IMG/VR virus record: IMGVR_UViG_3300037454_000078
Coordinates: 17,435-81,434 of that record
Reading direction: 5' to 3' (one strand)
Origin: a virus
Lineage: Duplodnaviria; Caudoviricetes
Length of the DNA: 64,000 nt
The notes below the pieces were generated by a model that worked only from the letters and a program-made list of their open reading frames with translations, did not search any database and was not told the DNA's origin. The position numbers and the translations under genes were made by a program. Below, piece by piece: positions 3 to 56,500 of the stretch. Positions within the stretch are counted from its first letter, which is position 1, and each line of letters begins with the position of its first letter.

Positions 3-3000
3 TTGGACGACATTGCATACAAAATGCAAAGACTTCAAGCATATAGACAAGGAATCGACTTGACTAAGCCAGGAGCCGAGAACGAGATAAAGCAGGTTGA
101 CGACAAACTGAAAGAACTGCAAAGGGACGCTGACAAGTGGATTTCTAAGTCTAAAGAAATTGAAAATCGCAACAACGCTCTTGGGCGCTCGTGGAACTAC
201 ATGAAGAACCGTCTTGCGTTCTACTTTACAGTAGGAGCAAGCACAGCGTTCATAAAGAACTTGATTGAGATACGCTCCCAGTACGAGATGAACGAGCGTG
301 CCCTTGGAATTCTCATCAACTCTGCAGAAAGAGGAACGCAAATATTCAAGGAGCTGTCAGACATGGCTCTCGTTTCCCCATACACGCTTATCGAACTGTC
401 AAACGCAGCGAAACAGTTGACCGCATACGACATCGCAGCAAAGAACGTTGTCGACACGACAAGACGTCTTGCTGACATGGCTTCTGCCGTCGGTGTTCCA
501 ATGGAACGTCTGACATACGCACTTGGTCAGATTAAGGCTTACGGCTATCTGAACAGCCGAGATGCCCGTATGTTCGCAAACGCAGGTATCCCTCTTGTCC
601 GCGAATTGTCAAAGTACTATACGGAACTTGAAGGTAAAATCGTTAGCGTGGGGGATGTGTACGACAGGATGAAGAAGAAGTCCATCGACTACAACGACGT
701 AATGGCTGTCGTTACAAAGATGACAGACGAAGGAGGCAAGTTCTTTGACTTCCAAGCAAAGATGGCAGACACACTGAAAGTGCGTCTTGCCAACCTGACT
801 CTTGCGTGGAACAACATGCTGAACGAAATAGGGGCATCAGAGCAGGGGGTTCTTACAACAGGAATAGGCATGCTGAAAGACTTCTTCTTGCACTGGAAGG
901 ACATAGAAGAAATCATCAGGAAAGTTGTATACGCGTTCGGATTGTTCAAAGCGGCTCAGATGATAACTCTTGCATTTATGGGAGAGTTGAACACGGCAAT
1001 GGGAATGCAGGTACTGCTTGGCACTAAACTTCAGACAAAGCTTGCTGCATTGACTTCTAGCACAAAAGCTTTGTCAGTTGGATTGTCTGCGTTCGGAATG
1101 GCATTTTGGGCTATTCTTGCAGACGCTTATGTTACATACAGCAGAAACGCTGAAGAAATAGAGAGACTTAACAAAACCATTGCAGATGGAGCAAAAGAAG
1201 CGTCCGAAGCCCTTGACAAAATGCTGCATTCTTCAGAAATGGTAAGCTCAAGAATGTCTGCAATGCAAGGAAAACTCTCAGCAACAGACGCAGCAAAGAC
1301 TTGGGAAGCGCTGCGTGAACAGATAGAGTTGTCCGCAATATCTTCAAAGAGCGTTGTTGCAGAAATCGTTGAAGAGATACAAAAAAACGGTTTTGACAGA
1401 GGAATAGAAAAAGCTTTCGGTTTTGCAGAAAGCATTCAAAAAGTCACAAGCAAACTGAGCGACCTGAACGACAAGCTTCAAATAACTCAAGATGAAATGC
1501 TGGGAGGGCTGTTTGGTGAAGGTGTCGTTGAGGATATTGAGGATTACAACGAAAGGTTAAAATACGAAGCCGAACTTGCAGAATGGGCTGCAAACAAGAA
1601 TAGCGGATTCTGGGAAAACGCTGTAATGGGACTTAAAGGTCTGTTCCATTCTGTAAAAGAAGACCTTGGAAGTTCAAAGGAAGAAGCAGAGAAAGAAATA
1701 AAGAAGTTTGCTGAAGACGCTGCACAGGTCATTAAAGACGAACTTGGAGAGGAGGGCTTGAAAGACAAAATTCAAGTAAATGAAGCCATTGCTCGCGTTC
1801 TTCAGGGGTTCGAACAGATGTATCCTCAGATACGTGGGAAGGGGAAAGTCTTGTTTGAGACACTGTTCAACGAAACGATGGCAAAAGAGTTTGAGGGTTC
1901 TGTAGACAAACAAGCATATTATTATGAGAAATTCTTGGAGCAACTCAAGAAAGACCACGGAAGTGCTTTTAATGAAGTTACTGACGAAATACTCAAAGAC
2001 ACGCACAAGTGGTCTTCCTCGCAATTGGACGCCATACAGAAAACTGCAGATAAAGTCAGAAAAGACCTTCCAGAAGCTTCGCAAGATGCAATTGACAAAA
2101 TCCTAAGACAACTCAATTCTACAGAGTTCAAAGTTCGAATTGTCGCAGAGATGGCCACAACTTCCGTTGATGAAGTACAAAGACAATTCAACGAGAAATT
2201 CATTAAGAAGCCTGGGATTGAAGACCAGAAAGAAAGAGAGAAGGCTGAGGCTGAGGCTGCTCAGAAATACGGTACTCTTAGGCGTAAATCAACAGAGAGC
2301 AATGTCGAGTACGAAAAGCGAATCAGCGACGAACGAAATAAACAGTTTGAGTTGTCTCAAAAGAACGCAGATATTATATCTGCAAACAAAAGCAAACAAG
2401 ACGAATACTCAAAGGCAGTAGTAAAAGACGCTGAAAACGCAAAGGCTGCAGCAGACGCGTGGCTGAAAGCTGCTGACGAAGTCGAAAAGGCTGGTGGATA
2501 TGACTTCAGTACAAAGAGCGAGCGTTCTGCTGCGTCGAAAGCTCAGAAAGCTGCAGAGTCAGAGCTTCAGAAAGCGTTGAAGGAAGAGATAAAGCTTATT
2601 GACGAAGCGACGAACATGTATAAGAAGATGACGGATTCTGGAATCAACAGGACAACCGCACTCACTTACATCACCAACAAGTTCGGAGACTCAATCGAGC
2701 ATATCAACAGTGTTCTTGGTAAGAACAATATACCAAAGTTCGACATAAGAAGGTTTGCTGGAACAGATGACCCGCATAAGCTCCTTCAGATGCTTGAGGA
2801 GCAGAGAGCTGCTGCAAAACTGTCAAGGAACGTAAAGCCAGAAGAAATCAGCGAACTGCAGATAAAATACGACAAGGTTGATGTTGATGCAAAAGTCTTT
2901 GATGCTACAAAGATTACAAAAGGCTTGAACAACGAGCTCGGACACCTGAAGGACGAGTACGAGCTTGCTGTGGAGCTTGACGCCAATCCAGAGTTCGGCA

Positions 3001-5252
3001 ATATGTTCGCAGAAATGTTCGACCTCGACTTGGACACAATGCCAAAAACGGCCAAAGAGTACGCTGACGCATACACCAAGCAACTTAACAAGTATTTCCA
3101 AGACCAAAAGACGGACATCAGGCTTCCGAATCTCCTGAACGTGACGAAGGACGACATGGAAGAGTTCAGGAAGCAGATGGAAGAAGGAAAACTTGAGATG
3201 GTATATTACGACCTTATAAAAGAAGCGTACAAAGAGACTCAGGCAGCCAGAAAGAAGGAGACGACGGACACAATCAACGAATGGAACAAGCTTGTTGAGA
3301 AATACGGTGAGTTCGAAGCCAAAATCACAAAGATAAACAACGACGCTGAAAAGGAACGGAAGATTGCGACCTTGATGAACGCTCCGAAAAGTCTTTTTGA
3401 GGCTATCGACTTAAAGCAAAGACAGCTTACGGCGAAAGCCGCGTTCGAGAGGTTCCAAGGCTCTTCTGAGTGGATTGTAGCCACTGGTGACTTGACTGGT
3501 ATGACAAAGGAGGCAATAGGCAGTCTGATAGACAGCATAGAAGAGTACAAGAAGAAAGCCAAATACCTAGACCCGAAGCAGATTAAGCAGATTAACAACG
3601 CCCTGAAAGCATTGCATAAGGAGCAGAGGAAAAACAACCCGTTCAAGTCTCTCTCAAACGCAATGGATGAAGCAAAGGACAAGGCCGAAGTGTTCCAAGA
3701 AGAGATAGACAGTGAGCAGGAGAAGCTGAACAAACTCAGCTCGGAAATGATTCAAAGCGGTCAGGTGACAGAAGAGACAACAGGGAAAATAGGAACAATA
3801 ATAGAAAGGATAAAAGAACTCAAAAAAGCACAAGAAGAAGTTCTGGAAGTAGACATAAACACCATAATAGAAGGTCTTAAATCCGTCATGTCCACAGTAA
3901 AGCAGGCCACTGGACTGTTTACGGACATGTTTGGTGCTATCGGAGGAGATGAAGTCAAGAAAGATATAGAGGATATGTTCTCTGTTGTAGACAATACTTT
4001 GAAAGGACTTGAGATTGGTGCGGCAATAGGCGGCAAATGGGGTGCTGTCATTGGCGGTATTGTCGGAATGCTTACGAGTGTCGTTTCAAAAATAGGAGAC
4101 ATCATCAGCGGAAACGAAGGCATTAACAGTTCGATTGAGGTCTCTGAAAGAAGAGTAAGGGGTCTTGAACTCGCGTATGTCGATTTGCAGCGCGCCGTAG
4201 ACGATGCCTACGGCTCTGCCGTCATCGGTGCAAAGAAGGCGACTGTATACAACAAAGAACTGCAACTTGCGGAACTGAAACGGCAGTTGGCGCTTGAACA
4301 GTCGAGAAAGAGCAAGAACATTGACCAAGACAGGATTGTAGAACTGCGGAAACAGATTCGTGAACTGGAATACGACATCATCGACTCGATAAAAGAAATA
4401 ACGAACTCAATGCTTGGCATATCAAGCGTTGGAGACGCTGCGGAGGCGCTTGTGTCGAACATGATAGAGTCCTTCAGGAAAGGCGAGGACTATATGCTCA
4501 GTCTCAAGGATTCGTATGACGACATGATAGACAACATGATTATGAAGAGCATCGTCGCAAACGTAATCGGCAAAAAAATAGATGAGTTGTTCGCGAAGGT
4601 CTCTGAGGCCGCTTCACAGAGAGCCAGTGCAGAAGAGGCAAGATACGAGGAAGCCGTGAAGAAATACAGCGATGCCATGAGTCGAATCACGAACCCAGAC
4701 TGGTGGGAATACTACAGTTTCGACCCTTATGGGGAAAACGTGGAAAGACAAGAACAGTCAAAGATTTCGTTTGAAGAGTGGCAGGACTTGTGGGAGAAGA
4801 GAATAGAGTATCTGAGAAAGCAGTACGAAGAAGCCGCAACGCCGACACCTGACGACGTGAAGGCGATTGAAGAGATGCGTGATGGGTGGTACGGAGGAAT
4901 AAAAGAAGAGTTCGAGGCGTGGATGAACGCATTCGGAATAAAATACGGGCAGGACGCTACGAACCAGCTCTCGGCATTGCAGCAAGGCATATCTGGAATC
5001 ACAGAGACTCAGGCAGGCGCATTGGAAGCCTACTGGAATGCGAACACGCAGCAGCAGTACGTGCATAGCGATTTGCTCACGCAGATAAGAGACGCCGTAC
5101 AGTCGTTCGACATGGACTTACAGCTTGGCGTCTTCTCTCAGATGCTTCTGCAATTGCAGACGAACTATACGGTCATGATGTCGATGCATTCCATGATGGA
5201 GGGATGGACTGTGGCTAGCGGACAAGGCATACGTGTCGAACTTATAAGTTAG
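3..5252 (+). CDS. Tail tape measure protein (5' end outside window)
   Basis: 1749+ aa Ala/Glu/Lys-rich helical ORF with tape-measure N-terminal motif (ELSNAAKQLTAY...LTYALGQIKAYGYL...FANAGIP); frame open from window start. Confidence 0.92.
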   Translation: MDDIAYKMQRLQAYRQGIDLTKPGAENEIKQVDDKLKELQRDADKWISKSKEIENRNNALGRSWNYMKNRLAFYFTVGASTAFIKNLIEIRSQYEMNERALGILINSAERGTQIFKELSDMALVSPYTLIELSNAAKQLTAYDIAAKNVVDTTRRLADMASAVGVPMERLTYALGQIKAYGYLNSRDARMFANAGIPLVRELSKYYTELEGKIVSVGDVYDRMKKKSIDYNDVMAVVTKMTDEGGKFFDFQAKMADTLKVRLANLTLAWNNMLNEIGASEQGVLTTGIGMLKDFFLHWKDIEEIIRKVVYAFGLFKAAQMITLAFMGELNTAMGMQVLLGTKLQTKLAALTSSTKALSVGLSAFGMAFWAILADAYVTYSRNAEEIERLNKTIADGAKEASEALDKMLHSSEMVSSRMSAMQGKLSATDAAKTWEALREQIELSAISSKSVVAEIVEEIQKNGFDRGIEKAFGFAESIQKVTSKLSDLNDKLQITQDEMLGGLFGEGVVEDIEDYNERLKYEAELAEWAANKNSGFWENAVMGLKGLFHSVKEDLGSSKEEAEKEIKKFAEDAAQVIKDELGEEGLKDKIQVNEAIARVLQGFEQMYPQIRGKGKVLFETLFNETMAKEFEGSVDKQAYYYEKFLEQLKKDHGSAFNEVTDEILKDTHKWSSSQLDAIQKTADKVRKDLPEASQDAIDKILRQLNSTEFKVRIVAEMATTSVDEVQRQFNEKFIKKPGIEDQKEREKAEAEAAQKYGTLRRKSTESNVEYEKRISDERNKQFELSQKNADIISANKSKQDEYSKAVVKDAENAKAAADAWLKAADEVEKAGGYDFSTKSERSAASKAQKAAESELQKALKEEIKLIDEATNMYKKMTDSGINRTTALTYITNKFGDSIEHINSVLGKNNIPKFDIRRFAGTDDPHKLLQMLEEQRAAAKLSRNVKPEEISELQIKYDKVDVDAKVFDATKITKGLNNELGHLKDEYELAVELDANPEFGNMFAEMFDLDLDTMPKTAKEYADAYTKQLNKYFQDQKTDIRLPNLLNVTKDDMEEFRKQMEEGKLEMVYYDLIKEAYKETQAARKKETTDTINEWNKLVEKYGEFEAKITKINNDAEKERKIATLMNAPKSLFEAIDLKQRQLTAKAAFERFQGSSEWIVATGDLTGMTKEAIGSLIDSIEEYKKKAKYLDPKQIKQINNALKALHKEQRKNNPFKSLSNAMDEAKDKAEVFQEEIDSEQEKLNKLSSEMIQSGQVTEETTGKIGTIIERIKELKKAQEEVLEVDINTIIEGLKSVMSTVKQATGLFTDMFGAIGGDEVKKDIEDMFSVVDNTLKGLEIGAAIGGKWGAVIGGIVGMLTSVVSKIGDIISGNEGINSSIEVSERRVRGLELAYVDLQRAVDDAYGSAVIGAKKATVYNKELQLAELKRQLALEQSRKSKNIDQDRIVELRKQIRELEYDIIDSIKEITNSMLGISSVGDAAEALVSNMIESFRKGEDYMLSLKDSYDDMIDNMIMKSIVANVIGKKIDELFAKVSEAASQRASAEEARYEEAVKKYSDAMSRITNPDWWEYYSFDPYGENVERQEQSKISFEEWQDLWEKRIEYLRKQYEEAATPTPDDVKAIEEMRDGWYGGIKEEFEAWMNAFGIKYGQDATNQLSALQQGISGITETQAGALEAYWNANTQQQYVHSDLLTQIRDAVQSFDMDLQLGVFSQMLLQLQTNYTVMMSMHSMMEGWTVASGQGIRVELIS

Positions 5253-7404: not shown

Positions 7405-8061
7405 TTAACCAAAAAAGGCCTTGAGAGCTCCAGACACGCTCTCCCCCTTGGCTTCCTTCATCCTCTTGTACTCCTCGAACGTAACCACTCCCTTGTTCCC
7501 CTCTTCGATGCGCCTTACGTTCTCCGTGCGCTCTATTTCCGCGTAGTAGTCTCCGCGTTCAGCCATGAACTTGTTCAGTGACTCTGTTATGACGAGGGCA
7601 TACGAGTCTCCGCCATAGAAGCGCCCGTACTTTCCAGCCATGAAGCGAGAAACGAACAGCAGTATTTCCTCAACCTTGAGCGTCTTGTACTGTGTGGATA
7701 TTGTCTGAGCCAACATGTACACCTGTTCTTTCGAGAACTTGTCGTTCGTCACGTTGAGGAATACAAGCATCGACTGCAGGACGCCGAAGAGCCATGTGGC
7801 AGACGAATTCTTCCCGTATGTGACATCTATTCTAACGAGCGTCGGCGATTCGCGCTTGAACACGTCTATCGGATTCTGCACGATTGAGTTCATGTTGGCA
7901 TACGAGAATCTGTTGCAGAACCCTCTTATGTCCCCGTACTCATTCCTTATCTCCGCCACCCATGTCGGCTGGCTCTCCGATGTTGCCAAAGAGCCGTTCC
8001 ATGAACGAGTCTGCTTCGGCAATAGTTCTCCCAACTTTTTCGGTTGCTGTTTCTCTTCCAT
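7405..8061 (-). CDS. Hypothetical protein downstream of replication initiator (possible helicase-loader-like partner)
   Basis: 218 aa; overlaps 3' end of initiator gene; function inferred from position. Confidence 0.6.
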   Translation of the reverse strand: MEEKQQPKKLGELLPKQTRSWNGSLATSESQPTWVAEIRNEYGDIRGFCNRFSYANMNSIVQNPIDVFKRESPTLVRIDVTYGKNSSATWLFGVLQSMLVFLNVTNDKFSKEQVYMLAQTISTQYKTLKVEEILLFVSRFMAGKYGRFYGGDSYALVITESLNKFMAERGDYYAEIERTENVRRIEEGNKGVVTFEEYKRMKEAKGESVSGALKAFFG

Positions 8062-8767
8062 AGTTGTTGTTGTTATTTTTATTCTTAGACCATGTCGTGC
8101 AGGCTGCTTTCCAGCTCTTCATAGGATTACGGCCTACTTTCCATCCGTTGCTCTCATAATGTGCAAAGAAGGCTTCCGCATCGAACGTATAGCCCTTCTC
8201 GTTGATGTAAGCCTGTATTTCGTCAACGGTAGGCTTAACAAATCGTTTCTCTTTCTTTATAGAAGACACGTTAGTGTCTGATATTTCTTTAATATTATCT
8301 TTCTTTTCCTTTCTTCTAGATAGTTGTTCATTTTGTTGTTCATTTTGTTGTTCATCATCAACAGTGCCACTCATACTTAAATCATTGATTTCCAACGTGT
8401 TCTGTTGTTCATTTTGTTGTTCAATTACTAAGTATTTCTTGATGGTTATAATATTAATCAGCTTACTCGTTGTCTGTTCGATGATTCCAGACGAAAGAAG
8501 TTCTGACAAGAACTTGCGTACAGTATTCCTGCTCCACTGCCACTTTTCTGCGAGGTTTGCTTCTGATATAGCAATCTCGTATGGTTTCAGCGTAACCTTG
8601 ATGCCTCTCACAAAAAATTCGCGCTCCTTATATGCAGCTTGGAAACAAAGGTCTATAAACGCCTGAGCACGAGTAAACCTCTCTGACGAGAAGAAGTCCT
8701 CGTCATAAAGCCCTCTATCCAACTTTATAAAACCCTTATTCAACTTGTAGCAGTCTTTAAAAGCCAA
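7940..8767 (-). CDS. Phage replication initiator (replisome organiser, lambda O-like architecture), TTG start
   Basis: N-terminal FIKLDR...wHTH (LAEKWQWSRNTVRKFL), central repeat linker, C-terminal FVKPTVDEI...HYESNGWKVG..PMKSWKAA domain. Confidence 0.8.
   Translation of the reverse strand: MAFKDCYKLNKGFIKLDRGLYDEDFFSSERFTRAQAFIDLCFQAAYKEREFFVRGIKVTLKPYEIAISEANLAEKWQWSRNTVRKFLSELLSSGIIEQTTSKLINIITIKKYLVIEQQNEQQNTLEINDLSMSGTVDDEQQNEQQNEQLSRRKEKKDNIKEISDTNVSSIKKEKRFVKPTVDEIQAYINEKGYTFDAEAFFAHYESNGWKVGRNPMKSWKAACTTWSKNKNNNNNYGRETATEKVGRTIAEADSFMERLFGNIGEPADMGGGDKE
8323..8423. repeat. Iteron-like 12-bp repeats (GTTGTTCATTTT) inside initiator gene
   Basis: GTTGTTCA core at 8323, 8335, 8347, 8404 and 8416; adjacent AT/pyrimidine tract 8281-8320. 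Confidence 0.7.
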
Positions 8768-10272: not shown

Positions 10273-10644
10273 CTAAAAAGGCAATTGACTATCGTCAGTA
10301 TTCGCATTCTTCTGCTGCGGAGTATTCTGAGGTTGGGCGCTTGCACCCTGCTGCGGCTGCTGCACTCCACCAATCGTCGAGCAATAGTAACAGCTTGCCG
10401 TGGTGAACCAACGTCCCTGATACTCCCTCGACGTCACGTTGAACTTGACCAACACCTCGTGGCCGACCACGACGGCGTTCTTCATCTTTTCGAACTTGTC
10501 GCTGCCCATGACCTCAAGGCATAGCTTCTGCTCGTACTGTCCGTCCATCCAGCTAACTACGAACTGGTGCTTCTCCCAATCTCCCCTGCTGCTCGTACCA
10601 CTCTGCACTGGCAGCACTTCAATAATCTTTGCGTTTAACTCCAT
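10273..10644 (-). CDS. DUF3127-type OB-fold protein (SSB-like)
   Basis: MELNAKIIEVLPVQSGTSSRGDWEKHQFVV...FNVTSREYQGRWFT..., Q-rich tail ending LPF. Confidence 0.8.
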   Translation of the reverse strand: MELNAKIIEVLPVQSGTSSRGDWEKHQFVVSWMDGQYEQKLCLEVMGSDKFEKMKNAVVVGHEVLVKFNVTSREYQGRWFTTASCYYCSTIGGVQQPQQGASAQPQNTPQQKNANTDDSQLPF

Positions 10645-11142: not shown

Positions 11143-11175
11143 CAAATATAGACATAGTTCTTGAAATATTCCAAA
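11143..11175 (-). promoter_or_regulatory. Bacteroidetes promoter (leftward arm) with near-palindrome TTGAAATATTCCAA
   Basis: TTTG-N21-TATATTTG on minus strand. Confidence 0.8.
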
Positions 11176-11179
11176 TTTA

Positions 11180-12240
11180 TAACACTATTTAATAGTATTA
11201 ACTATTTTTTAGTAATACTATAACATAGTATACATTATATTAATGTATATACATATACACACACGCGCGTAAAATCAGCTCTTTTCTTGAAATCCATGGC
11301 AGAAAACAGAAGAAAACTGAACCCTAAAATAAAAGAAACGCGTTTTAAGGCGTCCTGAGACGTTTTTTCGACCTCAGACGATAAATTGTACTCAAAAACT
11401 ATTTGAAGCCGCCAGAGAGCTCGAAAACAGCGTTTTTGACAATTCTGCATCACAACACACACTCTTTATCTCTGGGATTTTTATTTTTTCGTTTTTCTTT
11501 TTTTCTTTTTTGAGGAAAGGACTGTTTGCACCATATCTTTTCGCTTTGCGGTTCACCCCGTCCCCGTCTATTTGTTTTCGTCTGTTTTCGTACCTTTTAA
11601 GCCGTATTTTATCTGCTATCTTTTTAGGGTTAAAAATACGTTTTAAATACGTTCATTTATTATCATTATCACTTCTTTTGCAAGTCTATAACAAAAACGC
11701 CAAAACGCCAACAAACTAAAAAACGTATCATTTTGGAAAAACAATGTACCAAAATTAAACATATCTAAATATTCACGCCTATCTATCTATTATCTTTTTA
11801 TCTATTCTATTAACCAACAACTAACTAATAATCTATACTAACATATTATATTAATCTTATTAACTCTATATTAATTCTATACTATACTATACTATACTAT
11901 TCTATAACTTTCGCGTGCGTACATTATTATAATAAAATAAAGTGTACTACTAATATAGTACACAGATACAGTTTTTACGCTATAAAAAAAATATTAACAT
12001 TACTGTAAATAATTCAGAAAAAATAAATATTTACACTAAAAAACTCTATTTTTTAGGAAAAACTCTCTATTTATTAGTGTTTCAGAAAATAAAAATTTTC
12101 TATAAATTACTAATATTAATTTACAATATACATTTTTTAAGATTTATATCAATATAAAATTAACATATTAAATCTTTCAAAACAGCCTTAAATAAAGGAA
12201 TTTTGTGTAAAATATTATTTTATTTGTTAAAAACTTATTC
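11180..12240. other. AT-rich non-coding divergence region (candidate origin/terminus/packaging region)
   Basis: No credible ORF; 135-nt G-free tract 11778-11912; palindromes at 11229-11249 and 11942-11963. Confidence 0.6.
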
Positions 12241-12244
12241 TTAC

Positions 12245-12275
12245 TTTGATATATGGAAAATTAACTGTACCTTTG
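12245..12275 (+). promoter_or_regulatory. Bacteroidetes promoter (rightward early arm)
   Basis: TTTG-N19-TACCTTTG. Confidence 0.8.
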
Positions 12276-12314
12276 CACCAAAATTAAGATAATAACAATT
12301 TAAAACATTAAGTT

Positions 12315-12599
12315 ATGAACACGAAGAATAAAAGCAAATATCAATATTTAGGTGAAAACCTTTATAATGATACAGATATTTTTTGTTTGGTACATAAAGC
12401 CACAAGAATAGTATTTTTAGAATTTATTGCAACAGATTTTATTGATTATTGCATAAACAATAATATTCGTTTTGTGGATTATTTGCAAAAAAGAAAAGAG
12501 TATATTTGTAAAAGCCGCAACTATTCGCCAGAGTTATTTGGTGTATCTTATAAAAATTATGGTTACGAAACATATAATTTTAATTTAATGTGTGAATAA
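12315..12599 (+). CDS. Hypothetical early protein
   Basis: 94 aa, AT-rich, AAAACATT..TTATG leader. Confidence 0.65.
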   Translation: MNTKNKSKYQYLGENLYNDTDIFCLVHKATRIVFLEFIATDFIDYCINNNIRFVDYLQKRKEYICKSRNYSPELFGVSYKNYGYETYNFNLMCE

Positions 12600-12657
12600 T
12601 GTATTTATTACATATATAGTCAATTTATAGTATTCATCAATTTAAAACATTAAAGTT

Positions 12658-13284
12658 ATGAAAACAAAGAATTTAAGCACAAAGGAATTTAACGAAGTAG
12701 TTAAGGGTGCAAAGGTGGAAATTAACGGAACTTTCAAAAACCCGTTTGTAGTGATTAACTTATTAAATAAAGCCGTAAAAGGTGATTTTGCAAAGGTTGC
12801 AAATTGTGAGATTAATCCAGAAAATCTTAAAAAGGTTGCAAAGGTGTGCAAAGGTATGCACGCAAATAGATACGCTTTTGATGTATGCTTATTTGAAAAA
12901 GATTCATTTGGGCGTTTTTGTGCGATGTCACCTTTTAAGGGCGCAAAGGGCGATTTATTTGCAGATTATTACGACATTAACAATATGTCTGTATTAGTTT
13001 ATACTGATAACAAAGGGCGTGAAATTGTAGAAAATGAAAAGGGCGATTTATACACGTGTGCGCCTATCTCACTAACTATTAACGGCGTTTTTAACGCTTT
13101 TGCAAAGGTTGCAAAGGTGGACATTATCGAAAAAGATAAGGCCGCGAAAGAGTTTCAAAAGGCCGCAAAAAAGGCAGAAAGAATCAGGGCTACAAAGTTA
13201 CGTGAACTTGACAGGGCAAAGGACAAAGGTATTATAACGGAATTTGAATATAACGAAAAACTAAAGTTAATAAAAGCCGCGTAA
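12658..13284 (+). CDS. Hypothetical early protein (Lys/Ala-rich)
   Basis: 208 aa, same leader motif. Confidence 0.7.
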   Translation: MKTKNLSTKEFNEVVKGAKVEINGTFKNPFVVINLLNKAVKGDFAKVANCEINPENLKKVAKVCKGMHANRYAFDVCLFEKDSFGRFCAMSPFKGAKGDLFADYYDINNMSVLVYTDNKGREIVENEKGDLYTCAPISLTINGVFNAFAKVAKVDIIEKDKAAKEFQKAAKKAERIRATKLRELDRAKDKGIITEFEYNEKLKLIKAA

Positions 13285-13289
13285 AAGGG

Positions 13290-14062
13290 CTGCAAAGGGC
13301 TGCAAACGTACATAATATATTGGGGCGTACACTGCAAAAGTATTGCAGCCTACAAAAAGGGCGTTATAAAGAGTTATAACGTACCTTGCACCAAATAAGG
13401 TGTACAAAGGGCGCAAAATGTATCTTTTTAGCGCAAAGGGCGCAAAGTTACTACCTTATTAAAAGCGCAAAGTGCGCAAAGGTAGTACAAAGGGTACAAA
13501 GTAGCAAACGGCGTAATTTTTGACAATTTGAAAAGAATCATTATCACTTCTGCGAAAAAGTGTTGAAGGGGTGTAATTACTTTTTGTAGGTATACGTGCA
13601 CTTTAAAGAAATAAGCGTATAAACCGCAAAAGGGACAGGGAAAAGGCCGAAAAATCAAACGGGCGCCGTATCTATTAGCGTACGCGATTTGTAGGACGTA
13701 TTAACCTTTGCACTGAATAATTATATACAAGTATCAAAGAAGTGATAAAAAGCATAAAGCGATAATAACTTTATGGGTGATAGATATAACGGCAACGGAA
13801 ATGCAAAAGGGCGCAAGTATGGCTTGTTAAATGTCTGGTAGCGCAAAAAAAGTGAAAGTGTTTCGTTAAAATTTAATCCAGAATTATAGTTAGCAAAATA
13901 ACTGCATCGACTAACTCTTTTGCATGAAAGTGGATGAAATATAGCGTGCATGTGATGTAACGAAAGCGAACAAGTTCGCATGGCAGATTACTTGCATAAA
14001 GATATGCACAGGATAAAAGAGATTGTTGCATCGTAATTGCGTCGGCAGCATGCACGCACTAA
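13290..14062 (+). ncRNA. Candidate large ornate structured RNA
   Basis: ORF-free ~770 nt with many nested helices (see findings); strand assumed from operon context. Confidence 0.45.
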
Positions 14063-14078
14063 CCAAAATTTAAAAGAT

Positions 14079-14393
14079 ATGGCAAACTTAAAAGAATTGT
14101 GCGGAAGCATTCCGCAAAGCATCATTCACACCGCAACAAACTACGAAGTAGCAAGGCGCAAGGTTGCAGCGCACAGAAGGCAGCAGAAGGAATATAATGC
14201 ACGCATGCAGGCTCTGGATATGGAAAGATGCATCTTCGAGCAGTGCAAACGTAGCCGCACACAAAAGCGGGTGCGCAACTCCTTCAGCACTGAGGAGGCT
14301 GGGCGCAGCGGCGGCGGCACTATAATTGCAACCATACGGAATAATAGCACACATATACACCAAGTGTGCAGGGTGTCGGCAAACAGATATTAA
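14079..14393 (+). CDS. Hypothetical early protein
   Basis: ORF track, start MANLKELC after A-rich leader. Confidence 0.55.
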   Translation: MANLKELCGSIPQSIIHTATNYEVARRKVAAHRRQQKEYNARMQALDMERCIFEQCKRSRTQKRVRNSFSTEEAGRSGGGTIIATIRNNSTHIHQVCRVSANRY

Positions 14394-14432
14394 TCATAGG
14401 AGGCACATACATCAATTTAAAACAAAAGCATT

Positions 14433-14618
14433 ATGAGACAAAGAATCAAAAAGCAGGGCGCAGTCCGTGTAGGCACTGGCTATTGCCCGAAAGTAGCGGT
14501 ATTGTGGGCAGTCGTAGTGGCTGGCGTAGTGTTGTTCCAAGACACAAAGCAGGTGTGTGACGATTTGTGTGTGCAGATGCGCATGCACAATCAGCGTGCA
14601 GAGGTCATAAAGTTATAG
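14433..14618 (+). CDS. Small hypothetical protein with hydrophobic segment
   Basis: 61 aa, leader motif. Confidence 0.5.
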   Translation: MRQRIKKQGAVRVGTGYCPKVAVLWAVVVAGVVLFQDTKQVCDDLCVQMRMHNQRAEVIKL

Positions 14619-14629
14619 GAGGGCGAAAT

Positions 14630-14797
14630 ATGAGGACACGTGTATATCCAGCAGACGCAAGGGGCTATTGTCTGAGAGGCTTCTGCCCGACCATCTGCAA
14701 AAGCATCGAGAAGGCACAGAGAGAGGCGCTTGAGCTGGAGTTCAGCCTGCGCAAGTACGGATTCAAGTATCATCACATAGTAATAGAGGAGGCATAA
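14630..14797 (+). CDS. Small hypothetical protein
   Basis: 55 aa, GGAGG upstream. Confidence 0.5.
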   Translation: MRTRVYPADARGYCLRGFCPTICKSIEKAQREALELEFSLRKYGFKYHHIVIEEA

Positions 14798-14798
14798 C

Positions 14799-14993
14799 AT
14801 GAAGTACATCTTATATTTCAGTTCGCGCAAGAACTTTGGCGACAAAAGTACGTGGAGCAAGGAGGCATACCCGTCTGACGCGTCAATCCCCGAAGTCCGC
14901 AGGGCTGCAATGCTCGCAGGGTGCGAAGGTTTCGCAATAGTTAATTTCAAGACAAAGAAGACGCATCACTTTGAGTGGTTTGTAAACGCATAG
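14799..14993 (+). CDS. Small hypothetical protein
   Basis: 64 aa tandem gene. Confidence 0.55.
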   Translation: MKYILYFSSRKNFGDKSTWSKEAYPSDASIPEVRRAAMLAGCEGFAIVNFKTKKTHHFEWFVNA

Positions 14994-15004
14994 GAGGCAT
15001 AATT

Positions 15005-15235
15005 ATGAATACAGATAAATTATGGAATGTTCGCGATGAAATCATCTGCGAACTCGCTACGGCATCAATGAAGTTGGACAGACTGCACGTTGAATTGTGC
15101 GATGAAAGTCCGTATGAAGTGCCGAGCATTGATGAGATACGTGTGCGCATACTTTCAGCAATGAATGCACTTGCACGTCTTGAAACGCACGTAAACGAAT
15201 TTGGAACAGAAATTAAAAAATTGGAATCATGTTAG
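15005..15235 (+). CDS. Small helical hypothetical protein
   Basis: 76 aa, GGAGG upstream. Confidence 0.55.
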   Translation: MNTDKLWNVRDEIICELATASMKLDRLHVELCDESPYEVPSIDEIRVRILSAMNALARLETHVNEFGTEIKKLESC

Positions 15236-15516
15236 TAAGTGAGTTTATAGGTATGAAGAAAAGCAAAGAGCAAAAACGTGAAGAGGCACGAATGCGCCAG
15301 AATGCGCATAGTTGGCAGCGTGTGGACATTCCTCTCGACATGCCGTTTCTCGCAGGCGGTTACACTCAGACGGATTGGGATTGTCTTGTTCGTGGAAACA
15401 TGAGTGACGACGAAATAGAGGCGCTTGACTATATGTGGGAGTCATGCGAGACACTTGAGGAGCAGCACGACTATTTTAAAGACCAGTTGTTAAGTACAAA
15501 ACCATATTGGGCATGA
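15229..15516 (+). CDS. Hypothetical protein
   Basis: 95 aa, overlaps upstream stop. Confidence 0.6.
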   Translation: MLVSEFIGMKKSKEQKREEARMRQNAHSWQRVDIPLDMPFLAGGYTQTDWDCLVRGNMSDDEIEALDYMWESCETLEEQHDYFKDQLLSTKPYWA

Positions 15517-23222: not shown

Positions 23223-23399
23223 ATGGATGTAAGAATAAAGTATAAATCAGCAAAAAATGCGCAGGACGCAGCAAGTAAGCTGCCAATAGCATGCAGGTTC
23301 TTGATTGTTACAGACAAGACAACAGATTGCTATTTGCAAATTCCAGAAGAATACGAGGACTACGTAATGAATTTCTTAAACCCAGACAAGTATGTGTAG
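23223..23399 (+). CDS. Small hypothetical protein (58 aa)
   Basis: Manually translated; first gene after promoter, overlaps recombinase start. Confidence 0.55.
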   Translation: MDVRIKYKSAKNAQDAASKLPIACRFLIVTDKTTDCYLQIPEEYEDYVMNFLNPDKYV

Positions 23400-24231
23400 G
23401 GTATTCTTATACAGCCGCATCAGTACAGACCAGCAGTCTCTTGCACAACAGGAGAGGACTGTATACGAGTGGCTTGGCCGCAACAACATGTCAGTCACTG
23501 ACGTTGTGAGCGACGAGGGAATCAGCGGTGGCGTGTCGTATAAGGAACGCAAGCTTGGAAAGGAGCTGCTTCCGATTATGATTGCTGGCGACATGCTCAT
23601 CGTATCAGAGATTTCACGTCTTGGACGTTCGATGTTCGACCTCAGTAAGCTTATCAACGAGGAGTTGAAGCCGCGTAAGATTCGTCTTGTTGTGGTAAGT
23701 ATGGGACTGGATTTGCGATGCGACCATATCACTGCGCTGGACGAACTGATTCTTCAGAACTTCTCGTTTGCCGCCCAGTTGGAGAAGGAGCTTATAAGCA
23801 GCCGCACGCGCTCTGCGCTTGAAGTGAAGAAGAAACAGGGCATTAAGATGGGCGCTGCGTCTGACATCTATAAATCAAACAAATCAAAGAAGAGTAAAGA
23901 ACAGATAGGTAAAGAGATTATGCTTAGAGGCAGGATGAAGAACAAGAGGCACATGGAGTCGAAGGAAGCGCAGATGTTCCTCAAAGCACTGAAGAAAGCG
24001 TTCCCAGAGTACTGCGAGGACGAAGACTTCACGAAGTGGGATTGGGAATTGGGTCTGCGTCTTCGTTGCGGAAAACTTGAGAAGCTGGTCGAAGTTATGA
24101 AAGACATTCACGACGTAGACCAGACAGTCTTTGCCAAGTGGCAATTTGACAGTCCTTTGCTTGCCCGCCGTCTGCGTGCCCACATGCAGCAGTTCAAGAA
24201 GAGTGTAAAGAATTATTCGTCTAACAACTAA
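23392..24231 (+). CDS. Serine recombinase, resolvase/invertase family, with extended C-terminal domain
   Basis: LYSRISTDQQS catalytic motif, DEGISG, GDMLIVSEISRLGRS, EKELISSRTRSAL. Confidence 0.9.
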   Translation: MCRVFLYSRISTDQQSLAQQERTVYEWLGRNNMSVTDVVSDEGISGGVSYKERKLGKELLPIMIAGDMLIVSEISRLGRSMFDLSKLINEELKPRKIRLVVVSMGLDLRCDHITALDELILQNFSFAAQLEKELISSRTRSALEVKKKQGIKMGAASDIYKSNKSKKSKEQIGKEIMLRGRMKNKRHMESKEAQMFLKALKKAFPEYCEDEDFTKWDWELGLRLRCGKLEKLVEVMKDIHDVDQTVFAKWQFDSPLLARRLRAHMQQFKKSVKNYSSNN

Positions 24232-26030: not shown

Positions 26031-26111
26031 GGGGATGTAGCTCAGTTGGTTAGAGCGCACAGAACGGCCAGTCTTCTGTGGTGGTCGCGTGTTCAAGTCA
26101 CGTCATCCCTT
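26031..26111 (+). tRNA. tRNA scaffold with enlarged non-canonical anticodon arm (undetermined)
   Basis: Acceptor GGGGATG/CATCCCT, D-arm GCTC-AGTTGGTTA-GAGC, T-arm GCGTG-TTCAAGT-CACGT; anticodon arm CACAGAA-CGGCCAGTC-TTCTGTG. Confidence 0.75.
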
Positions 26112-53543: not shown

Positions 53544-56500
53544 TTACGCTGCTTTTAATTGTTCAACTTCATATCTTAGTCTCTCGTTCTCTTTTTCAAG
53601 TTCGGCTATCCTGCGCTCATGGTCAACGACCTTCTTTGCCGTGACAATAGTGGCGACAACGGCGGCAACACCATATTGCATGCTGAGTTCGCCACTCTTA
53701 TCCTTTACAACTTCTGGAAGTACCTTCTGCCAGTATTGTGCTATCGTACCAGCCTGTTCGCCCTCCGAGCGGTTGTCCTTCCATAAGAACCGTATCGCTG
53801 GCGCGTCAGCCACTTGCTCTACCGTAAGCGGAAGGTCGCACAGGATATTCTTGTACCTTATGTCGGAAAGACAGGTCACACCGCCAGTAGCGTAGATGTC
53901 ACCATCCACGTCGAGTTTGTATGACGGCGTACCTGTACCTATCCTCACGTTTCCGTTGCTGCTGATGCGGAACACCTGCGGCTGACTGCTTGTACCGCAA
54001 AAAATCCTTATGTAACTCTTTGCGTAGATGTTGGTATAGTAGCCGTACAAGGTGGTTGTCATCGTATTGTCGTACATGCCACGACCGATGCTCAACACGT
54101 TGCTGTTGCTGACATTTATGCAGTCAAGGTCAACGGGTGTGCCAGACGATACAAACGATTCCATGTAGAGTGATTTGCCGTTCTCCATATATACGTTACC
54201 GCTGAACCTTGTCGTCGCAGCCGTCACGCACAGGTCTGAACCAGTACTGTCAAGCGCAATCGTTCCGACGGACGTGCCGCTAAACTTAAACGACAAGGAG
54301 GAATTGTTTATCTCCGTGGTGAGCGGGTTGCTTCCGCCTCCGTACACCGACTTTCCGTAGATAGTCTGCGTGGCATTGCTCATTGAGCCGTTTGTCAGCG
54401 TGCCTACAGTAAGGTCGTTGTTGACGGTCACGTTGCCGCTGCTGTCGAGCGTCAGTCCAGTAGTGCGCGACGTGCCGTACCTAAGATAGACATTGTTTCC
54501 GTTTATGTAGGTACTATATCCTTGCCCAGACATTCCGTAAGCAAGGTGTATGGAGTTTGTAGTATCAACGGAAAGAACGGAATAACTTTGCGCAGTCCCA
54601 GACGATGGGTTGTTTTTCCAGAATATAGCCTTGTCATTGCTCATATAGACACCATTCGCAATAGACAAACTACCATTATAATCAAGCGTGAGTCCGTTCG
54701 TCCTTGTCGTTCCGTAATTAAAAAAGATATTATACCCGTAGATATACGTGCTATACCCAGCACCAGCCGTTCCGTAACCGAAGAATAACGAGTTGCTGTC
54801 GTTCAGACCGATGGTATTGTATGCTACGGCATCGCCTGACGCAGGTTCGTTATACCAGTACAGGCTCTTGTTGTTGGCAAGGTAGATATGGTTGTTTGCT
54901 GTCAACGTGCCTGTAATCGTCGCAGCACTTGCAACACTCAATGTTCCGCCGATATTGCTGTTTCCAGTGGCATTAAATGTTCCGTTGACATGGAGTTTAT
55001 ATGATGGAGACGACGTGCCAATACCAATGTTTCCAGATTCATTTATAAATAAACCAGTAGTACGTGCCGTACCATATCTAAGATTTATAATCCTACCATA
55101 AATATTTGTTGAATAACCTGCGGCAGCAGTACCATAACCTAATAGCAAAGCGTTGTTTTGGCTCAAGCCAAGCGCAGTGTAGTCGGTTGCCGTCTCTCCC
55201 TCGGCAGGATTGTCCTTAACACATATATAGGAACCATTGTTAAGATAAAGACTGCCCGTTATATCAGCCGTACCGTTAAAGGACTGACCCCATATTGTTC
55301 TCGACGTGTTAAGTTGTTCTGCCTTGTTGGCAACGCCGTTTGTGAAGTAACCTTCAAGTGTGGTTACACGTGATGATGTCGCATAAGTACCAGATATGTC
55401 TGGAATGTCCGCAGCAGCAAGCGTCTTGCTTGAAACGCTTGTGACGTGACCGAGGCTGTTGACGGTTATCGCGCCAAGAACCTTTCCGCTTGCGGCACTG
55501 ATGGTTGTGTTCGCGCCGTTTGTCGGATGCGAATACGACAATGTTATGTACTTGTTTGTCGTGTCATTTGTGATGGTTATATCGCCGCCTGACTTGATGT
55601 AAAGGCTTGCGTTGGCATTCGGCTTGAAATCAAGCACCTTTGTCGTATTACCGTAAACAGAAAGCGTGTAAAGCGTTTGGTGCGCCGTCAATACTTTCGT
55701 ACTGTTGGAGTAAAGGCAGTTGTCCGTTCCGATATAGACGTTGCTGTTCGAGTATGTCTGCGGGTTTGCTCCCTGCGATGTAGCACCGACGAGGAACATC
55801 TTCGTGGAAGCCTTGTTCGTTGTTCCAGCGGTATTCTTTGTGTCGGTGTACGTGGTAAGGTAGCCCTGGCCCTGAACCCATGTCTGCGTCGCATATCCGC
55901 CGCTTGTGAGCGCGGCGGTAATGTATGACAGGTGGATAGTCCTGTTGCTCGTCGCCTGTGCTGCAAGGGCATCCCACGTGACATCGCCGCCACCACCGCC
56001 GCCATCACTACCTTGTCCGAGTGCAGAAATGAAGGAATCAGTGTAAAGACCGTAGTTCGCCTTGATGACATACGGGTCTGACGGAGTACCTGAACCCTCA
56101 CGTGTAAACATAGCCCACAGCGTGTTTACCATGTCCTTCAATGTCGTGGTGAAGCCCTCATATCCGCTTGCATAGGTCAATGCGAGTGTGCCTGTCTTAC
56201 TGATTGGAGTACCGCTAACAGAGAACCCCGTAGGCACTGTCATAGAAACGCTTGTGACAGGCGTGATAGTACTACTGCCAAGCGTGATTACGCCGCTTGC
56301 TATCTTGGCGTCTGTAATACCATAACCACTAAGTGTCGTCGGCTTATCAGATGTAATTTTATTCCATGACAAGTCTGGAATCCTCGCCGCATCAAAAGTG
56401 CCGCTCGTTATCTTGCTTGCGGCAAGGTTCGGAATGTCTGCCGACACAAGTTTGCGGAACGTCGCCACACCACTACTTCCGTTCGGTGCGGCAAGCACAT

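Follow-up and report, generated by a model that had tools for sequence, protein, structure and literature searches.

Well-supported bacterial and phage RNAs longer than about 500 nt are few, namely the rRNAs, RNase P, group I and II introns, OLE, GOLLD, ROOL and a handful more, and each of these large RNAs does, or is expected to do, something unusual. Smaller elements are found in phage early operons, where RNase III-type sites, stabilizing hairpins and translation-control structures occur between the early genes of T7-like and SPO1/SP82-like phages; the R-sites of T7 and the sites in SP82 and SPO1 early RNA are single irregular hairpins of about 60 nt, which act as RNase III processing or stabilizer sites. 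The protein-sponge RNAs CsrB and RsmZ carry a reiterated A(N)GGA loop motif. GOLLD and ROOL are large ornate RNAs of phages and prophages, often encoded near tRNA islands, which form cages and have no known function, and the cage of GOLLD is a homo-oligomeric assembly (PMC12286853). In addition, 8,495 candidate structured RNAs from the intergenic regions of IMG/VR have been catalogued on the basis of covariation (PMC10690425).

The window analyzed here, a stretch of 64,000 nucleotides, corresponds to bases 17435-81434 of an 81.4-kb IMG/VR virus record. The source phage is uncultivated, has a genome of about 81 kb and is of gut/rumen type. The window contains a gap of 794 nt without genes, and both genes flanking this gap have the + strand as their coding strand (Table 1). 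We are highly confident that the gap holds a conserved + strand RNA structure under selection, 0.55-1.0 kb long and new to Rfam. With moderate confidence, we read it as encoding a new class of large structured phage RNA with four closed domains (D1 to D4). A tape-measure protein gene is located at 3-5252 of the window, and a leftward replication module includes genes for a DnaD/O-like protein (7940-8767) and a DUF3127-type SSB (10273-10644). An AT-rich strand-switch region follows at about 11150-12300, where the cumulative GC skew has its minimum, and the rightward gene run begins at 12315. The gap thus lies beside replication genes, 1-2 kb from the AT-rich divergence point. The sole tRNA of the window was found at 26031-26111, 12 kb from the gap.

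The initial annotation, which was made from the sequence alone, had described this region as free of ORFs. This holds for the + strand, which has no ORF longer than 45 aa, but not for the - strand, which contains mechanical ORFs of 76 and 86 aa that are not conserved. Among relatives, the longest ORF in the gap varies between 37 and 120 aa, the length of an alignment indel in the gap is a multiple of three in only 2 of 40 cases, and codon periodicity is absent in three of four alignment blocks. The composition of the D2 block is uneven over codon positions, but the pattern is not coding-like. Judged by reading frames, indels and periodicity, the gap is non-coding.

About 100 relatives of the 208-aa protein encoded upstream of the gap were identified, all of them metagenomic and with no family assigned, and the DNA gathered covers 16 distinct related loci. 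The next gene is visible in 13 of these sequences, and in all 13 a stretch of 550-1040 nt without genes lies downstream of the 208-aa homologue; the remaining 3 contigs stop 256-323 nt past the homologue with no gene up to that point. Beyond the gap, a homologue of the 104-aa gene is usually present. Sample labels, where given, are bovine gut and ruminant-type material. According to blastn, the first 260 nt of the gap are common to nearly all relatives, the middle is common to four loci, and the last 340 nt are common to L021, partly to L023, and to L020 as far as its contig end (about position 607 of the gap). This uneven sharing along the gap indicates that the region is modular: middle modules were swapped, lost or gained among relatives, while D1 and D4 were kept.

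Protein-guided scans returned just three further contigs from IMG/VR, seven loci from JGI metagenomes and no locus from GTDB genomes, and the 104-aa protein as the lone query returned no locus. A DNA-pattern scan of IMG/VR for the conserved D2 loop did not find it, while a pattern of two D1 hairpins led back to these three IMG/VR contigs alone, all of which also carry the 208-aa gene. In GTDB genomes the latter pattern gave 30 matches, none of which was confirmed by the covariance model of D1 (R1, described below). These unconfirmed matches include a goat-rumen Eubacterium MAG. As all of them remained unconfirmed, they provide no prophage or host lead. No match to 12300-14500 was found by blastn among 50,697 phage records. 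With the sliding clamp as the query, tblastn revealed no close isolate phage. The family is narrow: it comprises 4 contigs in IMG/VR and, at the protein level, roughly 100 clusters from metagenomes.

Table 1. Coordinates of the structured gap, its parts and its flanking genes, given as positions in the window.
Feature	Position	Strand	Remarks
Upstream gene, 208-aa Lys/Ala-rich protein	12658..13284	+	No known family; ~100 metagenomic relatives
Whole non-coding gap holding the structured RNA	13285..14078	+	No conserved ORF; gap kept in relatives
Hairpin H0, CTGCAA/TTGCAG	13332..13348	+	Present in the window
Domain D1	13351..13503	+	Covariance model R1, 17 loci
D1 long hairpin	13357-13387	+	
D1 second hairpin	13388-13403	+	
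D1 closing helix of the three-way junction	13419-28/13489-98	+	
D1 hairpin inside the junction	13431-43	+	
D1 nested pair inside the junction	13449-57/13479-87	+	Around 13465-77
Annotated arms TACCTT/AAGGTA	13452-57/13479-84		Confirmed
Annotated arms GCGC/GCGC	13465-68/13474-77		Confirmed
Linker, mostly unpaired, GCAAACGGCGTAA ... TGAAAAG ... ATCAYTATC	13503..13550	+	Near-invariant in alignments A3 and A8
Domain D2	13544..13714	+	Plain MAFFT, 5 sequences
D2 hairpin	13544-50/13560-66	+	
Annotated arms CACTT/AAGTG	13545-49/13558-62		Confirmed
D2 closing long-range helix	13570-76/13708-14	+	Span 145 nt
D2 17-bp hairpin with TATACG/CGTATA	13580-97/13615-33	+	
Annotated arms TATACG/CGTATA	13591-96/13616-21		Confirmed
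D2 inner helices	13650-59/13686-93; 13664-66/13678-80	+	
Bovine-gut metatranscriptome contig, 236 nt	13699..13934	.	100% identical, depth 2.6
Domain D3	13753..13931	+	3 sequences; provisional, least secure
D3 hairpin CATAAAG/CTTTATG	13753-60/13768-75	+	
Annotated arms CATAAAG/CTTTATG	13753-75		Confirmed
D3 closing helix	13801-10/13916-25	+	
D3 GCGC/GCGC	13811-14/13841-44	+	Other inner helices provisional
Domain D4, three-way junction	13944..14057	+	Model R3, 10 loci
D4 P1	13944-53/14048-57	+	
D4 P2	13954-63/14023-32	+	
D4 P2a	13966-70/13975-79	+	
D4 P2b	13991-98/14003-11	+	
D4 P3	14038-40/14045-47	+	
A-rich spacer without Shine-Dalgarno, P1 to start codon	14058..14078	+	
Downstream gene, 104-aa basic protein	14079..14393	+	No known family; homologues 3' of the RNA in relatives

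All of the hairpin arms listed in the initial annotation were found where it had placed them, and most of its helices show compensatory changes. Such changes were observed in D1, D2, D3 and D4 across relatives, and this comparative evidence, which is the decisive kind, is strongly positive. In D1, a MAFFT alignment of 16 sequences, made without any structure fitting, presented three helices in which both partners had changed in 13 of 21 pairs. When each of the 16 sequences was folded singly, one plan emerged every time (16/16): first a 13-bp hairpin whose loop is RGNG, next another hairpin, then a three-way junction enclosing a GCGC-AAAGG-GCGC hairpin plus a nested hairpin pair. The covariance model R1, built from five sequences, matched each of 17 loci exactly once, over its full length and on the + strand, with E-values from 3e-38 to 2e-8, and detected a single copy in the phage's own genome. 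In the 17-locus alignment, 91.2% of 724 cells were paired, compared to 64.0% after shuffling and 35-53% with slid partners, and 36 of 45 pairs had changes on both sides; the observed pairing and covariation were reached by 0 of 500 shuffles. The outer helix of the junction was the weakest (74% paired), and one G-U pair was invariant over the 17 sequences. While the stems covary, approximately eight CAAAG-type words in loops and linkers are nearly invariant, and so is the GCGC-AAAGG-GCGC hairpin. This pattern suits sequence-specific recognition at several sites, a suggestion that is not backed by binding data. Upstream of D1, both differences between the H0 hairpin of L002 and that of the window retain pairing only as G-U, and other relatives have a different hairpin at this position.

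From the linker that follows D1, ACGGCG (13508-13) can pair with CGCCGT (13664-69), as initially annotated. This long-range helix is 96.7% paired, but it shows only one-sided G-C/G-U changes and no double change, and can be called compatible at most; it also competes with a local hairpin having two double changes. In D2, for which MAFFT and RNAalifold were used with five sequences, 93.3% of cells were paired compared to 29-51% in slid controls, 15 of 45 pairs were compensatory, and the observed values were again reached by 0 of 500 shuffles. The closing helix of D2 was 100% paired with three double changes, and the annotated TATACG/CGTATA hairpin proved to lie at the tip of a longer hairpin of 17 bp, which has seven double changes. 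For D3, 54 pairs were predicted from three sequences and 13 of them were compensatory. This provisional fold takes in the annotated CATAAAG/CTTTATG hairpin and the closing helix. The structures of D2 and D3 were derived from the same alignments that were used for counting, which comprised only 5 and 3 sequences, respectively.

A nested 3' domain had been noticed in the single sequence; it is present at 13944-14057 and corresponds to D4. In the window, L021 and L023, D4 has 36 pairs, 8 of them compensatory and none broken. Its three-way junction recurs in every relative folded, despite divergent sequence in the others, and + strand folding z-scores in ten sequences lie between -1.6 and -4.2; in several homologues the - strand folds almost equally well. 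When all D4 versions were aligned with plain MAFFT (A4), slipping GU repeats put the alignment out of register, and no usable consensus resulted; hence, covariance models were used. A three-sequence model detected divergent versions at the expected place in L016, L015 and L002, and a second model (R3), built from six sequences (the window, L021, L023, L016, L015 and L002), found D4 in 10 loci, 4 of which were outside the model. In the ten-sequence alignment, 95.6% of 317 cells were paired (65.7% in shuffled alignments and 20-54% in slid controls), 31 of 34 pairs were compensatory, and 0 of 500 shuffles reached the observed values. Since the D1 and D4 alignments were fitted to models, their pairing figures are inflated.

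The spacer from the 3' end of P1 to the next ATG is 21-27 nt long, A-rich and free of a Shine-Dalgarno sequence in 9 of 10 loci, and it is kept although the N-termini of the downstream proteins differ. A position of 21-27 nt before a start codon is about the upstream edge of the ribosome footprint on mRNA. A fixed position relative to the start codon, which is the mark of a cis leader, was found for D4 only, and on the strength of this spacing we infer that D4, at least, may act in cis, either in initiation or by defining or protecting a processed 5' end.

Single-sequence folding had been proposed as a check, and the whole region did fold better than dinucleotide-shuffled sequences (z = -2.6 on the + strand), though the - strand did so as well (z = -3.6); for the 3' domain alone, z was -3.0 on the + strand versus -1.1 on the - strand. 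As both strands of the region beat the shuffles, folding of one sequence cannot separate RNA structure from DNA palindromes. G-U or U-G pairs outnumber A-C or C-A combinations by 50 to 10 in D1, 22 to 1 in D2 and 27 to 6 in D4, and by 99 to 17 in sum. A G-U pair on the + strand would read as an A-C mismatch on the other strand, and this excess thus points to the + strand. Consensus folding energy also favored + over - in three of four alignments, the remaining one being the out-of-register A4, where - was marginally better (-3.9 versus -3.2). Taken together, the + strand bias, the multi-way junctions and the long-range helices point to RNA, and not to operators, iterons or cruciforms.

This evidence leaves little room for an element acting at the DNA level, such as single-stranded hairpins in replication or priming, or palindromic operator or iteron arrays made from the word GCAAAGG, and we regard such an element as very unlikely. 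It would fit the AT-rich divergence point, the GC-skew minimum and the replication genes nearby, the better-than-shuffled folding of both strands, and the abundance of GCAAAGG, which occurs 33 times in the window where 7.5 copies are expected, with a cluster at 12709-13711. The copies within the upstream ORF, however, are Ala-Lys-Gly/Val codons, for which no selection on DNA is needed. GCA-AAG was used for 7 of 9 Ala-Lys pairs there versus a 40% background (p ~0.025), and nucleotide-level selection on the word inside this ORF was rejected as mostly accounted for by the Ala-Lys codons. Moreover, the stems vary yet stay paired, unlike protein-binding half-sites and contrary to what defines an iteron or operator, a G-U excess is not expected for duplex palindromes, and neither multi-way junctions nor long-range helices of 125-145 nt are, to our knowledge, a known feature of operators or iterons. 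The same observation of stems that change sequence and stay paired across relatives answers a caveat of the initial annotation, that the small vocabulary of palindromic words from which the 5' half of the gap is built can mimic structure. That vocabulary is also what could be cited for chance structure in a low-complexity, palindrome-rich spacer, to which we give practically no credence: none of the 500 shuffles matched D1, D2 or D4, slid controls were far lower, and the models detect domains in sequences outside their training sets.

Searches for signals that would delimit a transcript were negative. No conserved promoter of sigma-70 type or Bacteroidetes type (-33/-7) was found in or just upstream of the gap, the near-invariant linker at 13503..13550 gave no conserved match to promoter patterns, and there was no terminator-like site on the + strand within the gap. 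A sigma-70-like site at 13208-13235 with an 11/12 match is conserved in no relative. The promoter rules of the host are unknown, and an internal promoter may have escaped the search. The 236-nt metatranscriptome contig, from one public RNA run, is the only real cover in 12300-15500. It shows no strand, ends or level, and DNA carry-over is possible; as evidence of transcription it is weak and can be taken only as a hint. Among the sequencing runs, a single RNA run covered any of the stretch, and only a small fraction of it; missing cover on the flanking genes is no evidence. With no promoter or terminator of its own found, co-transcription with the operon is the simplest reading, which remains an inference for a phage of unknown host.

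The comparison with described RNAs supports novelty. Rfam cmscan of the whole window at gathering scores (4227 Rfam 15 families) found nothing real in the gap, and a scan of 13200-14150 at E <= 5 gave a snoRNA model (E = 0.48) as the sole match. Covariance models of GOLLD and ROOL had no match in the window, and the tRNA-island neighborhood typical of both is absent, as protein genes flank the gap and the tRNA is 12 kb away. Of the two readings offered initially, membership of the GOLLD/ROOL type therefore had to be dropped, with no match even at E <= 5 and no tRNA nearby, while that of a new class in the early transcript gained support from a large, multi-domain, non-coding region with covariation in up to 17 loci and no Rfam family. 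The gap has what is generically expected of a large structured ncRNA, being several hundred nt long and non-coding, with compensatory pairs. No helix linking the four domains has been shown, and it is not proven that they form one RNA; the product may be a stable ncRNA in its own right or a structured stretch within the mRNA of the operon.

The 208-aa protein is the fixed 5' neighbor of the RNA in every locus and has a Lys/Ala-rich helical tail. Searches of Pfam, PHROG and Atlas gave no lead. A SHOCT-like match at its C-terminus is sub-threshold only. Its AlphaFold model (pLDDT 77) had no significant fold match with Foldseek and VIA-align and showed no recognizable RNA-binding fold; a few rows were to the T4 MotA C-terminal domain, with a probability of at most 0.1, and other matches were generic helical hairpins. 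That this protein binds RNA is a hypothesis for which there are no binding data. The 104-aa protein had no Pfam or PHROG match.

In the model that we propose, the gap RNA would be transcribed within the rightward early operon and not from its own promoter. D4 would act in cis on the gene at 14079-14393, either by holding the A-rich start, which lacks a Shine-Dalgarno sequence, in single-stranded form and setting a limit to where the ribosome lands, or as the mark of a processing site, which would give the downstream mRNA a defined and protected 5' end. D1 might serve as a multi-site protein platform through its invariant CAAAG-type words, with the adjacent 208-aa protein or a host RNA-binding factor as candidate partners. 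This specific division of labor among the domains is no more than tentative. Bolder still is the idea of a third giant phage RNA beside GOLLD and ROOL, 0.55-1.0 kb long, which is released from the early transcript and acts as an RNP. The CAAAG loops of D1 would then bind many copies of the 208-aa protein or sequester an RNA-binding protein of the host, and the particle would take over a host function early in infection. We consider this unlikely; if it were true, the RNA together with the orphan protein family would amount to a new RNP system in phages.

Two other explanations accept the RNA structure and differ from our reading in what it does. One is an ornate RNA of GOLLD/ROOL type that stands alone and acts in trans. 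It would be excised from the operon RNA or transcribed separately, build up as a stable particle, possibly by self-assembly or as a ribonucleoprotein, and act on the host or the infection cycle and not on its neighboring genes. Its size (794 nt, and up to ~1040 nt in relatives) and multi-junction complexity are far above those of usual leaders, and the invariant loops and junctions of D1 are like those of RNAs that make tertiary contacts or have proteins as partners. Over 3.2 kb, the one contig from an RNA library falls within the gap, with none on the genes at either side, and these are uncultivated phages of gut/rumen type, ROOL likewise being a phage/prophage RNA (PMC12286853). Nevertheless, Rfam shows no match to GOLLD, ROOL or another family, tRNAs are not nearby, and the bounds have no conserved promoter or terminator. 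The fixed spacing of D4 argues for a function in cis, at least at the 3' end, and the beads-on-a-string order, with free gain and loss of middle modules, is unlike a single compact fold, leaving the trans-acting particle quite unlikely.

The other is a set of independent cis-acting mRNA elements which have accumulated in one long spacer without a joint function, such as RNase III-type processing sites, stabilizing hairpins at 3' and 5' ends, and structures controlling translation. Every domain is closed by its own helix with no proven helix between domains, the middle modules come and go while D1 and D4 stay, and D4 is coupled to the next gene; its P1 and P2 amount to 20 stacked base pairs, the size class of RNase III substrates, for which cleavage data are lacking. 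On the other hand, the primary sequence of D1 is conserved over 150 nt, which simple stabilizers or cleavage sites do not need, the gap exceeds 550 nt in every relative, and the closing helices of D2 and D3 span 125-145 nt and covary, which suggests higher-order folding. Given these points, we find a mere collection of unrelated elements improbable, and prefer a new class of large structured phage RNA.

On this preferred reading, the gap adds one more large RNA to a short list; its covariation is unusually dense, its domains follow a clear plan, and two conserved genes for orphan proteins are its fixed neighbors. It also provides a second genomic context for large phage RNAs, the early operon rather than the tRNA island. 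Even if it were "only" a leader, 0.8 kb with four domains and a junction 21-27 nt before a start without a Shine-Dalgarno sequence would be an unusual form of early-gene control.

Compared with the systems described at the outset, the gap RNA is like GOLLD in being ~800 nt long, multi-domain, of phage or prophage origin and unknown function, with one conserved end and another part variable (PMC12286853). GOLLD is usually located beside tRNA islands, whereas the gap RNA lies between two protein genes of an early operon and conserves a 5' domain and a 3' junction architecture. With ROOL (Rumen-Originating, Ornate, Large) it shares a similar size class among large phage/prophage RNAs (PMC12286853), and both are known mainly from metagenomes; unlike ROOL, it is a chain of separately closed domains, the 3' domain is tied to a start codon, and no pseudoknots have been demonstrated. 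The IMG/VR catalogue has its data source and method family in common with this work, and the paper presenting it reports no comparable large element (PMC10690425); pieces of the gap RNA could be among its unnamed candidates. As in CsrB and RsmZ, a short purine-rich word is repeated in the hairpin loops and linkers of a non-coding RNA, but here the word is CAAAG(G) and no partner protein is known, and these RNAs are a mere working analogy for D1. The sites of T7, SP82 and SPO1 resemble the gap RNA in lying between early genes on the coding strand, with a stacked helix of ~20 bp and without a promoter or terminator of their own, while the gap RNA differs in its 550-1040 nt, four domains, multi-way junctions and invariant loops. 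By analogy, and with its function only inferred, the gap RNA may work more like an oversized structured spacer of an early operon to which a conserved platform domain has been added.

Some related metagenomic loci that carry a homologue of the 208-aa gene contain forms of the RNA that differ from that of the window. D1 is common to loci L013 (3646-4330) and L022 (3601-4250), in both of which D2-D4 are replaced by about 450 nt of different sequence, alike between the two, that makes up the middle and the 3′ part. The covariance models for D4, R2 and R3, found no D4 in either of these intervals. As far as sequence allows us to judge, the RNA appears to exist here in a second variant.

Most relatives have the word CTGCAAACGT, located at 13299-13309 in the window, right at the beginning of the gap. 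The word occurs again, at about 1469-1478 in L015, between P2 and P3 in a divergent version of D4 found in L015, L018, and L024, and this version is not present in the window itself. The longest gaps, about 1000-1040 nt, were those of L005, L024, and L026. Between their D1 and D4 lie additional conserved modules, one example being around GGTACGGCTG ... GAAACGAT, which the window lacks.

Upstream of the RNA, a promoter-like site was located within the 3′-terminal part of the 208-aa ORF. Since this sigma-70-like site was found in 0 of the 16 relatives checked, it is probably fortuitous or window-specific, an inference made from sequence comparison.

Positions of the promoter-like site and other features in the window
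Feature	Position	Orientation or context	Description
Gene-poor strand-switch region	11150-12300	between leftward replication genes and rightward early genes	25-31% G+C; cumulative GC skew minimum
Sigma-70-like promoter match	13208-13235	directed into the RNA	TTGACA, 16 nt, TATTAT; near-consensus, 11/12
Serine recombinase/invertase-like gene	23392-24231		PHROG 125
3444-aa protein	53544-63878	minus strand	C-terminus matches tail-fibre families

The strand-switch region could serve as an origin or as an early-promoter region. Contigs of five relatives (L015, L021, L026, L027, and L028) start 45-280 nt 5′ of the 208-aa gene, that of L026 being 82.6 kb in length, and those of L020 and L002 end soon 3′ of the gene. 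Either the upstream AT-rich region disrupts assembly, or a physical genome end is located there; the corresponding site is internal in the window's own record.

Among the weak matches that a Foldseek search returned for the 208-aa protein (P0002, encoded at 12658-13284), three were to the C-terminal DNA-binding domain of phage T4 MotA, with probability ≤ 0.1 and TM of about 0.2, far below significance. This model-based likeness to the MotA C-terminal domain can serve as a lead only.
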